Shown: positions 34,329-38,336 of the stretch, in pieces | Numbering within the stretch: the first letter of the stretch is position 1 | How the letters are laid out: each line of letters begins with the position of its first letter | Origin: a virus | Length of the DNA: 64,000 nucleotides | Reading direction: 5' to 3' (one strand) | Virus record (IMG/VR): IMGVR_UViG_3300042261_000976 | Span: 4,627 to 68,626 of that record | Notes under the pieces: model-generated | What the model was told of the DNA's origin: nothing | The model's input: only the letters and a program-made list of their open reading frames with translations | Database searches by the model: none | Position numbers and translations under genes: made by a program

Positions 34329-37300
34329 TTAACGAGGAGTTGGTGAATTACTGACTTTTTTACTATTTGGTTTTTCAGCCACTAAATCATCCTCTGTTTC
34401 CTCTTCATCTGTAGTTTGCTTATTAGCCATCTTATCAACATTAGAATCCAAGTTCTTAACATAAGATAACAATCGATCATAAAATTCTGATTTACTTGAT
34501 GTTTCTTCAGCGACAGCACTCGATGTAGATACAACATTCTCTGTTCCTGTTGTAGCTGGTCTTGTCTTTACTGTGGCATTATCTGATAATATAGATTTAA
34601 TATCATCTCTTTTCTTATCTAATATTTTAATAGCATCATCTAATTTTCTTTCGTCTATTAAAGATAGAACTAATATACCATTAGAAAATTTGGATAACTT
34701 ATCCATTGATGATAAATCAATATTCTTCAAAGTTTCCCCAAGATCAGCCATTGATTTAGATAACATCCAAATAGAAAAACTAGTTGTTAATCCCATAGAT
34801 GTTATATTTGATAATGCTTCGCTTAATGTTTTTAATCCTTCTACTTTTTCTGGAGTTGGTAAACTATCTGTTAATTTCTTCATAGAATCACTAAAATTAT
34901 CAAATACTCCACCCTTAACAAAAAGTTCTTTGTATTTTTCTAACATAGCCATTCTATGAGCGAAATGAATCATTGTATGACCAGCTTTAATCATCAAATC
35001 AAAACTACCTTCATCTAATTTAGATAATGCGTTGATTGAATTTACAAAAGCACCAATTGATTTTTCTACTGATTCAGCCCATTCTTTAGGAGGACCTTTA
35101 TACCAAACATTTTCATCCACGTCTGCAAAATCTTCAGCAGCGTTTATCATTTGTTTTATTACCTTATTAAGTACTCTTATTTCTCCCCTACCAATTTCAG
35201 ATTTTTCAATTTCTTCTAAATATTTAACAAAAGTACCTATGGCTTTGCCTACATTATTTGACCATTCTTCCGATGGATAAATTTCCCAAATGTTAGGATC
35301 TTCATCACTGATTTTCTCAGCTGTCTGAATCATAGCATTTATTACTTTTCTTAATACTCTAAGATCTCCACTTCCAATGTCATTTTTCTCTATTTCAACC
35401 AAATATCTTACAAAAGTGCCAATAGCTCTTCCAACACCATCAACCCAATCTGATGATGGATAATTTTTAGCTTTACTCCAATCATATTCTCCAATTATTT
35501 CAGCGGCATCTATTAGACCTCTTGACAATTTTCTTATTCCCCTTGTTATATCTCCTCCTGTTATATCAACTTTTGCTAATTCTGCTAAAGGTATAGCAAA
35601 GGCATTTATTGCTTCACCGACAGCTCTTGACCATTCAGCTGAAGGGTAATTCTTAATATTTGCCCAATCAAATTCATTTAATATCTTAGCAGCAGTAATT
35701 AAACCATAACTAATCATGCTAACCATCCAAATAAAATCAAATCCATTATCAATATCAGCTTCAGCCAATTTTTTGATACCATCAGCAAATGCCATTATTC
35801 CGCCACCAACTCCTTTCGCCCACGCTTCTGAAGGATAATTTCCACTCCAATTAACACTTGATAATATATCGTTGGCAGTCTTCATAGCATTAGCTATAGA
35901 AACTATTTTGGCTCCTTCATCTTCACCAAATAACATTCCCAATAAACTATCTGATTCTGCTAACGCAGCGATTCCTTTTGCGAAAGCCTCTATGGCACTT
36001 CCAACTCCTCTTGCCCACTCTTCTGTTGGTCCTCCGGTGTAATCTCCTTCTCCTAATATTGCAGCCACATCTACTATAGTTTGAGCCACTTTTCTCATAG
36101 CCCAACCACCTATTAATATGAAAGGAATCATCGCAGCAAATATTATTCCAGTAGTAGCTACTGCAAATAATATAGAACCCGTTGCTAATGCCCACTCTCC
36201 AGTAGGGCCATCTTTATAATTACCTAATGCTAATATAACTGATACAGCTGTTATTGTACTAGCCACAGTTAATATTGCTAAAGCTCCCATAGCCATTGCC
36301 AAGAATCCAAAAGGTCCTAAAAGACCTAAAATTAACATAGATGTTCCAAAAGTAACCATAGATAAACCGACACCGGCTGCCCAATCAAAAGTTGGATAAT
36401 TGTCAAATTGTCCCAATCCTAAAATAAGAGATACAGCCACTATAGTACCAGCCACAGCCAATGTGGCTATTGCTCCTATCAACATTGCTCCAGCGGCTGC
36501 CCCACCTGTTGCCATTATTAATCCACCTAATACCATCATGGCACTACCAAATGCTATCAAAGTTAGACCAACACCAACAGACCATTCAAAATCTGGATAA
36601 TTGTCATAATTTCCTAATCCTAATATTAATGATGTAGCAACTATTGTAGCTGCAACACCTATTGTTGCTAAAGCTCCTGCAGCTAAAAATTCTAAAGCTA
36701 TTCCGCCTGTTGATGTTAATATTAAACCTAATACCATCATTCCTGTGCCAAAAGCAACTAAAGATAATCCGACACCGATTGACCATCCAAGACTTGGATA
36801 TTCATCATAGTTTCCTTCTCCTAATATTAAACTTGTTATTAAAATTACTGCTGATATTCCAATTATAGCTAATCCTCCAATTAACATTTCTTTTGCAGAT
36901 AAATCCATTTTATTTAATAACCAGATAGTTCCAGCGAAAGCTAAAATAGATAATCCAACTCCAATAGTCCAACCAAGACCAGGATATTCATCATAATTAC
37001 CAAGACTAATTATCCAACTAGCTGCTGCTATAGTGCCAGCAGCTATTAGAATATTTAATCCGGCTTTTAACATATCTTTATGTTCTATATTTTTTAAAAT
37101 ATAGAAAGCAGGAGTTAACGCCAATACAGCCAAACCAATAGCTATGCTTGTGAATACAAGTTCTACTGCTTGTTTTATAGTAAAGAAACTCATTTTTGTA
37201 AGTATCCAACTAGCAATGACTAATCCAGCAGCGATGGCTGCTACCATTAAAGTTGTTTGTGCAATTTGTCCTAAGTTAAATCCTTTTAGTTTTTCTATAA

Positions 37301-38336
37301 GAGGTTTCATTAAATAAACTAAAACCCCCACAGTTACAGCAACAAATATAGCACTTATCATTTGAGCAAAAGATAAAGATGCTGTTCCTTTTAATATAAT
37401 AGATGCCACGACTAATCCTATGGCAAGAGCTGGAATTATAAGTGGTAATAATAAAAATTTACCAACATCACCAACTTGAAATTTTGAACTTTCTAAAGCC
37501 TTTGATATTAAATATAAAGATACTCCCATAGCTCCAGCAACAAAAACAAGACTTACCATTTGTCCGAAAGTTAATGATGCAGATCTTGATAATATTAAAC
37601 TAGATATAGCTAAACCAAGAGCTATTACTGGAAGAATAAGAGGCAATAATGCAAATTTTATATAATCTTTAGGTTCTATTTTTGCCTTCTGAATAGCTTT
37701 AGCCATTAATACTAAAGATATACCCATGGCACCAGCAACAAAAGTTATAGTCATAGCTTTAGTAAAACTTAGAGTTGATGCCAGCGCTAATGCCCAACTA
37801 GACACTGTAAGTCCGAGAGCCATAACTACCATCATTCCACTGACTTTAGCTATATCTGCTATTTCTAATCCTTCAGTGGCAGCAGCGACCATAATAAAAG
37901 CACCAGATATAAATACTATAGCCAATCCAATAGCTATAACAGAAAAGAAATTAACAGGGGCTATAATCTTAAGAGCCAATCCCATAGCGAGAACACCAGC
38001 GGCAATAAGAGTAACGACTTTTATTGCGTCTATGATTTTCTTCTTATTATCTACTTCAGCTATTTCGTTAAAAACACCAGCCTCTTTGGCTTTTCTGGCT
38101 GCTTTAACTTCTTCTAATATTTGATCTTGTTTTGTTTCAATTCTACCAACTGCTTTGACGACTATTTCCATGTTTTTTACAACACTACCTAGTTGATCGT
38201 TCATGTTGGTTAACATTTTGTTAACATTATCAACATTTTTCTTACCTACATCTTGTTTGAGTAGATCTACTATTCCTTCTAAAGCTTTTGTGAAATCATC
38301 TAATCTCGATACGAATCTTGCGTCAACAGCTGGCAT
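34329..38336 (-). CDS. giant (1335 aa) repeat membrane protein; candidate tail tape-measure / ejection protein
   Basis: 11 tandem ~62-aa repeats with [NY]P..EW..GVG core (first six embedded in TM hairpins); coiled-coil N- and C-termini; preceded by G/GT-like frameshift pair. Confidence 0.7.
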   Translation of the reverse strand: MPAVDARFVSRLDDFTKALEGIVDLLKQDVGKKNVDNVNKMLTNMNDQLGSVVKNMEIVVKAVGRIETKQDQILEEVKAARKAKEAGVFNEIAEVDNKKKIIDAIKVVTLIAAGVLAMGLALKIIAPVNFFSVIAIGLAIVFISGAFIMVAAATEGLEIADIAKVSGMMVVMALGLTVSSWALALASTLSFTKAMTITFVAGAMGISLVLMAKAIQKAKIEPKDYIKFALLPLILPVIALGLAISSLILSRSASLTFGQMVSLVFVAGAMGVSLYLISKALESSKFQVGDVGKFLLLPLIIPALAIGLVVASIILKGTASLSFAQMISAIFVAVTVGVLVYLMKPLIEKLKGFNLGQIAQTTLMVAAIAAGLVIASWILTKMSFFTIKQAVELVFTSIAIGLAVLALTPAFYILKNIEHKDMLKAGLNILIAAGTIAAASWIISLGNYDEYPGLGWTIGVGLSILAFAGTIWLLNKMDLSAKEMLIGGLAIIGISAVILITSLILGEGNYDEYPSLGWSIGVGLSLVAFGTGMMVLGLILTSTGGIALEFLAAGALATIGVAATIVATSLILGLGNYDNYPDFEWSVGVGLTLIAFGSAMMVLGGLIMATGGAAAGAMLIGAIATLAVAGTIVAVSLILGLGQFDNYPTFDWAAGVGLSMVTFGTSMLILGLLGPFGFLAMAMGALAILTVASTITAVSVILALGNYKDGPTGEWALATGSILFAVATTGIIFAAMIPFILIGGWAMRKVAQTIVDVAAILGEGDYTGGPTEEWARGVGSAIEAFAKGIAALAESDSLLGMLFGEDEGAKIVSIANAMKTANDILSSVNWSGNYPSEAWAKGVGGGIMAFADGIKKLAEADIDNGFDFIWMVSMISYGLITAAKILNEFDWANIKNYPSAEWSRAVGEAINAFAIPLAELAKVDITGGDITRGIRKLSRGLIDAAEIIGEYDWSKAKNYPSSDWVDGVGRAIGTFVRYLVEIEKNDIGSGDLRVLRKVINAMIQTAEKISDEDPNIWEIYPSEEWSNNVGKAIGTFVKYLEEIEKSEIGRGEIRVLNKVIKQMINAAEDFADVDENVWYKGPPKEWAESVEKSIGAFVNSINALSKLDEGSFDLMIKAGHTMIHFAHRMAMLEKYKELFVKGGVFDNFSDSMKKLTDSLPTPEKVEGLKTLSEALSNITSMGLTTSFSIWMLSKSMADLGETLKNIDLSSMDKLSKFSNGILVLSLIDERKLDDAIKILDKKRDDIKSILSDNATVKTRPATTGTENVVSTSSAVAEETSSKSEFYDRLLSYVKNLDSNVDKMANKQTTDEEETEDDLVAEKPNSKKVSNSPTPR
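35037..37001. repeat. 11 x ~190-nt in-frame coding tandem repeats inside 34329..38336
   Basis: YP..(E/D)W motif recurs at residues 451, 513, 580, 647, 714, 773, 834, 898, 960, 1021, 1084. Confidence 0.6.

Follow-up and report, generated by a model that had tools for sequence, protein, structure and literature searches.

BIG, a candidate tail tape measure protein of a Mahaphage-like huge phage, with membrane-type and soluble versions of one hairpin repeat

The tail length of phage T4 is determined by gp29, a 590 amino acid (aa) protein that is also a subunit of the baseplate hub. Phage T5 codes for a tape measure protein, pb2, with few transmembrane segments and a muralytic domain. A study of the trigger of T5 infection reportedly proposes that the tape measure is expelled and that its hydrophobic segments are inserted in the host envelope as a channel for DNA. 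The tape measure protein (TMP) of phage TP901-1 (937 aa) is an all-helical ruler with conserved ends and 29 internal repeats, whose loss shortens the tail; TMHMM predicts six transmembrane segments in this protein and one of its hydrophobic regions is essential (PMC5099701). Tape measures have been described with periods of 11, 18 or 40 residues, marked by W/F (PMC5099701). In megaphage G the tape measure gene (ps86/gp183) follows those of the sheath, the tube subunits, an assembly chaperone and a frameshifted chaperone, while its product, which carries a tail lysin domain, was shown by proteomics to be in virions (PMC12484599). In a related lineage of Bacteroidota jumbo phages no tape measure gene was detectable, which was put down to divergence (2025, PMC12619734). 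HK97 work, as cited within that paper, also proposes a membrane conduit made by the tape measure. Here we describe a candidate tape measure protein of a huge phage. Its gene lies in a 64,000-nucleotide stretch of viral DNA, the window hereafter (positions 4,627 to 68,626 of IMG/VR record IMGVR_UViG_3300042261_000976), and its product has the short name BIG.

BIG is a 1335-aa protein coded by an uninterrupted open reading frame (ORF) on the minus strand (34329..38336). We estimate at roughly 60% the probability that it is the tail tape measure protein of this phage and that, once ejected, it crosses the host membrane with its hydrophobic half, a function that we infer from genomic context. An earlier note, made from the DNA letters alone, had suggested a tape measure on the ground of strict periodicity. 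The argument is weak because the periods described for tape measures are the 11, 18 and 40 residues mentioned above and because no known tape-measure family is matched. The proposal itself is nonetheless the best supported one, by the gene order in relatives, a promoter-like motif, the adjacency to a tube gene in genome LR756502 and the quantised lengths of the BIG family.

The gene order was established in contigs of up to 234 kb (L017) that carry distant BIG homologues. In L008, L009 and L017 the genes of the large terminase, the tail sheath and a 184-185-aa tube protein are followed by 2-4 small genes and by the BIG homologue, which is colinear with BIG, C-terminal domain included. The sheath was identified by Pfam Phage_sheath_1C. 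The tube protein matches the PHROG 'tail tube protein' (1.5e-4); it also has 34% identity with a protein of PTm1 whose deposited name is 'baseplate subunit'. The arrangement is the sheath-tube-chaperone-tape measure order known from megaphage G. In contig L007 the gene of a 1326-aa sheath homologue lies just upstream of the BIG homologue. In LR756502 (642 kb) the four-gene module formed by BIG and three conserved partners, described below, adjoins the tube gene (PHROG 'tail tube', 8.5e-13) and is ~13 kb from the sheath and a 315-aa phrog_36717 protein. In LR756501 (735 kb) BIG is found elsewhere and the sheath-tube-218-158-309 cluster is intact; since no long ORF follows this cluster, the slot holds no rival tape measure candidate.

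The sequence GATATATA is present 19-33 nt upstream of the sheath gene, of the tube gene, and of the BIG gene or its two-gene operon in L008 and L009. Its 6-7 copies are all on the coding strand, while 1-2 are expected, and none among the copies listed precedes the adjacent nucleotide-metabolism genes. A scan for sigma-70 promoters gave fewer sites than in shuffled sequences, and the T4 late promoter TATAAATA was found upstream of one homologue only. GATATATA is related to the TATATATA motif of the window, where a T-rich stretch with TATATATA(G/A) recurs 17-26 nt before many start codons (for example at 49351, 55922 and 63322 on the plus strand and at 57928, 16482, 11117, 7659 and 6563 on the minus strand). 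The sequence upstream of BIG in the window has the variant TTTTTAATATATAAC. The TATATATA-type motif is probably a phage-specific promoter element.

A word-indexed search yielded 98 homologues of BIG. An exhaustive profile search with a limit of E<=1e-3 extended the family to 985 clusters (50% identity), 570 of them with E<=1e-30. JGI metagenome protein P0001 is 100% identical to BIG. No informative name or Pfam domain was found among the homologues returned with source names. Family members range from 737 to 3071 aa and keep a constant architecture: a soluble amino terminus, hydrophobic helices that number 9-26 (median 17) and of which the first lies at about residues 110-116, soluble units in variable number and a conserved carboxyl terminus. 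The longest members grow by extra soluble units, and copy number varies most among homologues in this soluble part. Among the 26 closest homologues, length differences are whole multiples of 62.5 residues (R=0.74, against 0.53 for the 99th percentile of the null). The quantised length, the conserved non-repeated ends and the variable number of repeats all count for a tape measure. A ruler of capsid size is unlikely, as a 709-kb contig has a 981-aa homologue while those in genomes of 642-735 kb have ~1000-1700 aa.

A structural-gene context of late type would also suit a virion ejection (pilot) protein, packaged in the head or the baseplate, which forms a channel across the envelope and plays no role in tail length. 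Membrane-active ejection proteins likewise combine hydrophobic helices with soluble helical repeats. Such a protein seems improbable here. Head-packaged ejection proteins are known mainly from short-tailed phages, the BIG homologues occupy the tape-measure slot by sheath and tube, and a quantised length has no obvious role in a channel of fixed span. The earlier note had offered an ejectosome or inner-membrane channel as alternatives; a membrane channel that is ejected is compatible with the tape-measure role favoured here.

The periodicity of BIG was measured by BLOSUM autocorrelation against 100 shuffles. The period is 66 residues for residues 100-440 (z=10.8), 67 for residues 440-760 (z=13.2) and 61 for residues 760-1110 (z=10.1). 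With a hidden Markov model (HMM) of the P..(E/D)W units, exactly 11 tandem copies are detected at residues 419-1110, with 65-88 bits each, the number that the earlier note had given for nt 37001-35037 (residues 446-1100). Units 1 to 6 are bounded by residues 419-480, 481-541, 548-609, 615-676, 678-739 and 737-797, and units 7 to 11 by residues 800-863, 869-926, 931-988, 990-1049 and 1051-1110. The division into six membrane-embedded and five soluble copies stands for units 1-5, which are fully hydrophobic, and for units 7-11, which are soluble, while unit 6 is a hybrid whose helix 1 is hydrophobic and helix 2 amphipathic. There is no tandem repeat at the DNA level within the gene and the repeat units are therefore ancient.

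BIG as a whole consists of ~16 helical hairpins, preceded by an N-terminal helical domain of ~95 residues and followed by a C-terminal helical region of ~225 residues. The soluble N-terminal domain (residues 1-95; 38052..38336, minus strand) has helices at residues 6-31 and 49-85 in the AlphaFold2 (AF2) prediction; L19 and the onset of the hydrophobic region at about residues 108-116 are conserved across the family. It is followed by hydrophobic block A (residues 96-418; 37083..38051, minus), in which autocorrelation, AF2 and hydropathy peaks delineate five 66-residue hairpins with 10 membrane-type helices and the motif LLP.ILP.IALGI..SS.IL. Units 1-5 (residues 419-739; 36120..37082, minus), defined by the HMM, have acidic and aromatic tips with the motif G.Y..YP...W..GVGLS..AFG, where P514, W518, P581, W585 and P711 are almost invariant. 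The switch from hydrophobic to soluble hairpins occurs in unit 6 (residues 740-797; 35946..36119, minus), as seen by HMM and hydropathy; its P770 does not vary among the 82 sequences of alignment A2. Units 7-11 (residues 800-1110; 35007..35939, minus) are soluble amphipathic hairpins of period 61 that keep the motif NYPS.EW..GVG..I..F. The C-terminal region (residues 1111-1335; 34329..35006, minus) is conserved in the family, is present in its consensus and aligns colinearly with that of the distant member P0098. The coiled coils proposed to flank the repeats agree with ends that are helical and coiled-coil-like according to AF2 secondary structure and weak matches of coiled-coil type. All five short ORFs previously dismissed as opposite-strand artefacts lie inside the conserved coding region of BIG; three are antisense, while 35947..36195 and 36604..36786 are on the same minus strand in other frames.

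Membrane-type segments were defined by a Kyte-Doolittle value >=1.6 over 19 residues, topology being judged from hydropathy and charge. BIG has 20 such segments at residues 105-745 and one more at residue 877, in helices of ~25 residues whose hydropathy peaks reach 2.7. About 12 transmembrane helices had been counted before; the number is 20-21 because the five additional hydrophobic hairpins at residues ~96-418 had been missed. The view that this content is atypical for a tape measure is thus correct but understated: by the same criterion there are 21 hydrophobic 19-mers in BIG and 9-24 in its relatives, against 1 in T4 gp29, 3 in TP901-1 TMP and 0 in lambda H. Loop charges alternate along BIG, acidic-aromatic hairpin tips (GNYDEYP..W in the window protein, LLPDEYxxPxxDW in P0098) being opposed to inter-hairpin loops that are basic or glycine-rich. 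The latter are basic in P0098 (+3 to +5), where the positive-inside pattern is clearest, and short, uncharged and glycine-rich in window units 2-5. The positive-inside pattern suggests that at some stage the hydrophobic helices truly lie across a membrane, without indicating the side of insertion.

AF2 modelling of residues 1-1200 with 82 sequences gave 45 helices of ~25 residues, with a mean confidence score (pLDDT) of 52 and a fold confidence score (pTM) of 0.31. For the 890-aa relative P0098 a cleaner alignment of 66 sequences gave again an all-helical model (pLDDT 48, pTM 0.35). BIG is thus predicted to be all-helical, with no confident monomeric or tertiary fold in these models. This is typical of tape measure proteins and is a weak argument against a polytopic membrane protein that folds autonomously. 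Comparison of the model with the PDB by Foldseek, a check advised for tape measure and ejection protein structures, returned noise, the top match being a designed helical repeat (E=0.18).

In the tape-measure mechanism that we propose, several copies of BIG would lie as long helical bundles within the lumen of the tail tube during assembly, with the conserved N- and C-terminal helical domains docked at opposite ends of the tube. The count of ~62-residue hairpin units would set the length of the protein and thereby of the tail. At infection BIG would be expelled ahead of the DNA, and its N-proximal half, with ~10 hydrophobic hairpins per chain, would insert in the host cytoplasmic membrane to provide a conduit for a genome of several hundred kb. 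T5 pb2 and other conduit-type tape measures have the same proposed mechanism of expulsion and channelling of DNA through the envelope by hydrophobic segments; pb2 has in addition its muralytic domain, while no enzymatic domain was found in the BIG family members scanned against Pfam. Tape measures that combine predicted transmembrane segments and internal repeats are already known, TP901-1 TMP being one. BIG shares with this protein the helical ruler organization, the conserved ends, the internal repeats and the hydrophobic regions. TP901-1 is a siphophage, however, whose TMP has repeats of 11 or 18 residues instead of 61-67 and 3-6 hydrophobic segments instead of ~21, and belongs to sequence families that BIG does not match. 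Not described for tape measures are the 61-67-residue hairpin repeat, the ~20 hydrophobic helices and the gradient from membrane to soluble hairpins within one repeat family.

A more daring proposal, which we regard as tentative and rather doubtful, is that one repeat family, present in membrane and soluble versions within a single chain, does two jobs as modular ruler and as genome conduit, or else that the tail is measured against a ruler first sitting in the inner membrane of the producer cell. With two jobs, each soluble unit would add one hairpin of ~25-residue helices, roughly 4 nm or about one tube ring, and the ~10 hydrophobic hairpins per chain would give, as trimer or hexamer, a conduit of 60-120 transmembrane helices. 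Either mode, if true, would be a form of tail-length control and genome delivery undescribed for any phage.

If the tape-measure assignment is right, BIG is the missing tape measure gene of the largest known phages and of their Bacteroidota-infecting relatives, and ~1000 clusters at 50% identity that are now 'hypothetical protein' gain an annotation. Tail length would then be readable from metagenomes: at 0.15 nm per residue, 737-3071 aa correspond to ~110-460 nm when extended and to about half of this if hairpins stack. For BIG a tail of ~200 nm would be expected in the extended case and of ~90-100 nm with stacked hairpins, each stacked unit (~25-residue helices, roughly 3.8 nm) approximating one tube ring. 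The extreme hydrophobic content would offer a concrete candidate for the cytoplasmic-membrane channel of several-hundred-kb genomes, while the passage from membrane to soluble hairpins in one repeat family would be a natural case of conversion between transmembrane and soluble helices.

Several observations weigh against a tape measure. No Pfam, PHROG or NCBIfam/TIGRFAM tape-measure model matches BIG or 38 family members, and BIG is not similar in sequence to gp29 of T4, to TP901-1 TMP or to lambda H (the family profile hits T4 gp29 with E=3 by hmmsearch). No cultured phage carries a BIG homologue, as judged by tblastn searches of 50,697 phage records with four members of the family. Genes of the sheath, tube or baseplate are not recognised in the 64-kb window, and the BIG gene is far from sheath and tube in LR756501. 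The T4 layout, in which the tape measure is preceded by gp27/28 and followed by gp48/54, is not seen around BIG, whose neighbours match no hub or tube-initiator family in Pfam, PHROGs or NCBIfam. Finally, ~20 strongly hydrophobic helices with a positive-inside pattern look like a polytopic membrane protein inserted by Sec/YidC; an even number of helices and this charge pattern would place both termini on the cytoplasmic side of the producer cell.

This last topology is the strongest argument for the view that BIG is a polytopic protein of the producer's inner membrane, a late morphogenesis platform or scaffold for the tail or baseplate that is absent from virions. A non-virion membrane scaffold had been listed among the earlier alternatives and it stands as a rival, although we judge it unlikely. 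The 20-21 helices of ~25 residues with Kyte-Doolittle values up to 2.7 are what such a protein requires, the alternation of basic and acidic-aromatic loops is a classical positive-inside signature, and the first hydrophobic helix begins at a fixed position, ~residue 110, as for a signal-anchor. The conserved downstream partner 1 is also membrane-anchored, and a late-type context with tail-gene neighbours suits an assembly factor equally well. Against a scaffold, AF2 gives no compact membrane fold even with the clean 66-sequence alignment, and BIG resembles neither a known family of membrane proteins nor a solved structure. The uncharged, glycine-rich loops of window units 2-5 are poor topogenic signals. 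The copy number of soluble units varies ~ten-fold and in a quantised manner (737-3071 aa), which is ruler-like and odd for a scaffold of fixed geometry. A scaffold role would also leave the sheath-tube cluster of these genomes with no candidate for the tape measure, a role that BIG fills in our preferred assignment.

No informative family came out of Pfam, PHROGs and NCBIfam scans that covered BIG, 38 relatives, the longest members and the neighbouring genes, and sequence and profile searches of the PDB with BIG gave coiled-coil compositional matches only. Among 50,697 phage records, tblastn with BIG matches only the 634-735-kb uncultured huge-phage genomes LR756501/3, LR756502 and LR745206; distant relatives of BIG also match the 462-kb LR756500. 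No homology to the megaphage G tape measure was detected by tblastn with BIG and three relatives. The window is that of a Mahaphage-like huge phage, AT-rich (GC ~29%) and with no tRNA genes in its 64 kb. Other products coded in it are HSP70, a DnaJ-like protein, a helicase and a hybrid histidine kinase. A Bacteroidota host is likely because the sheath homologues of the related contigs have their nearest matches in Lak megaphages and in jumbo phages of Flavobacterium, Tenacibaculum and Chryseobacterium. The phage is probably a huge T4-related myophage that infects Bacteroidota. Related genomes resemble T4 in having a Gp23-type capsid protein, gp32 and a terminase-sheath-tube order like T4 genes 17-18-19, and the role proposed for BIG equals that of gp29. 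The latter differs in the absence of sequence similarity and of a 62-67-residue hairpin array, in its single hydrophobic 19-mer against 21, and in its flanking genes.

The four-gene module found in every Mahaphage-type context examined is composed of BIG, a ~140-aa C-terminally anchored protein, a ~145-aa PhageMetallopep-like protein lacking HExxH and a 217-296-aa protein. In the window, partner 1 (33841..34275, minus) has 144 aa with a C-terminal hydrophobic anchor and is syntenic directly after BIG in L002, L003, L004, L005, L016 and L019. Partner 2 (33255..33722, minus) is a 155-aa PhageMetallopep-like protein (PF18894, Pfam E 8e-7), syntenic in L002-L005, L007, L010, L018 and L019. The position expected for HExxH reads xQExx, with EQEID, DQELA or HQELD in the 5 homologues inspected, and partner 2 is probably a non-catalytic relative. 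Partner 3 (28767..29657, minus) has 296 aa; its blastp counterpart in L002-L005 and L019 is the 217-255-aa gene located after the metallopeptidase-like one; in this phage a vault-protein-like gene separates it from the rest of the module.

Upstream of BIG, a 140-aa coiled-coil protein (39783..40205, minus) that is possibly a chaperone is 58% identical to its counterpart coded upstream of BIG in LR756501. In L004, L005 and L008 the gene directly 5' of BIG codes for a coiled-coil protein of comparable size. A 729-aa protein (41124..43313, minus) is 33% identical over its full length to a 691-aa protein upstream of BIG in LR756501, and none of its 25 homologues is annotated. The 233-aa ORF just upstream of BIG (38625-39326, minus) holds the sequence tta-aaa-aaa-gat (A_AAA_AAA), after which the -1 frame is open for 96 codons and ends ~40 nt before the BIG ATG (region 38376-38690, minus). 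A chaperone gene pair upstream with a programmed frameshift (G/GT type) is a hallmark of tape measure loci; the present stretch may be a programmed -1 frameshift, or else a pseudogene or the result of a homopolymer error. The ORF sequence is identical in the independent Logan assembly L001 and has no homologue in LR756501; the conserved 140-aa coiled-coil gene has no frameshift signal.

The vault-like gene, three genes downstream of BIG (30785-33202, minus), codes for an 805-aa homologue of the eukaryotic major vault protein (MVP) with Pfam matches to MVP_shoulder (1.6e-27) and Vault_3 (2.4e-12). It is 83% identical to the gene at the same place in LR756501 and is missing from the other related loci examined. 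The 'first viral MVPs' were reported from gut phages (2023 preprint 10.1101/2023.11.10.566534). The presence of this MVP/SPFH-like gene in the window and in LR756501, together with window neighbours that are chaperone and nucleotide-metabolism genes and not tail genes, might be taken to mean that BIG is a membrane protein foreign to morphogenesis, acting in superinfection exclusion, in membrane remodelling with the vault homologue or in transport. We hold this to be very improbable. The proposal is weakened because the vault-like neighbour is confined to these two genomes, with no MVP-like gene beside any other homologue examined, and because no transporter or defence family is matched in Pfam, NCBIfam or PDB, the PADLOC defence library having been left out. 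Across a large phage clade BIG moreover behaves as part of the gene core, tied to sheath and tube. A homology to membrane transporters, which the earlier note had named as evidence that would speak against a tail protein, was thus not found in these three databases, and a general functional link between BIG and its vault-like neighbour is rejected.

Two long proteins were considered as tape measures in place of BIG. A ~1900-aa protein, the only other long neighbour, is coded near the BIG module in L002 (16397-22117), L007 (14681-20485), L010 (11168-16915) and L019 (17347-23022). Conserved in these four huge-phage loci and with no homologue in the window, it is rich in Y/S/T/N and has a CBM_5_12 carbohydrate-binding module, a composition and a domain on which it was rejected as tape measure; it is a likely tail fibre or receptor-binding protein. 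In the cultured Tenacibaculum phage PTm1, which has a related tube protein, the 1314-aa ORF-006 is T/G/S/N-rich and fibre-like and is not a BIG homologue. In L009 (8549-9715) and L017 (8508-9701) the ORFs of 71 aa and 315/324 aa between tube and BIG homologue share one frame, separated by one stop and one sense codon, while they are in different frames in L008. Stop-codon readthrough across the two ORFs is possible in L009 and L017.

Elsewhere in the window, a 981-aa hybrid sensor histidine kinase (49367-52312, plus strand) has several PAS domains, HisKA, HATPase_c and a receiver domain, and its gene is preceded by the promoter-like motif TTTTTTATATATAGA. A full-length HSP70/DnaK (21466-23277, plus; Pfam E 1.6e-235), a 563-aa protein with zinc-finger repeats of DnaJ type (23308-24999, minus) and a 762-aa protein with a TPM-phosphatase domain (17042-19330, minus) constitute a phage chaperone set. 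A similar set is said to be present in 'moraphages'.

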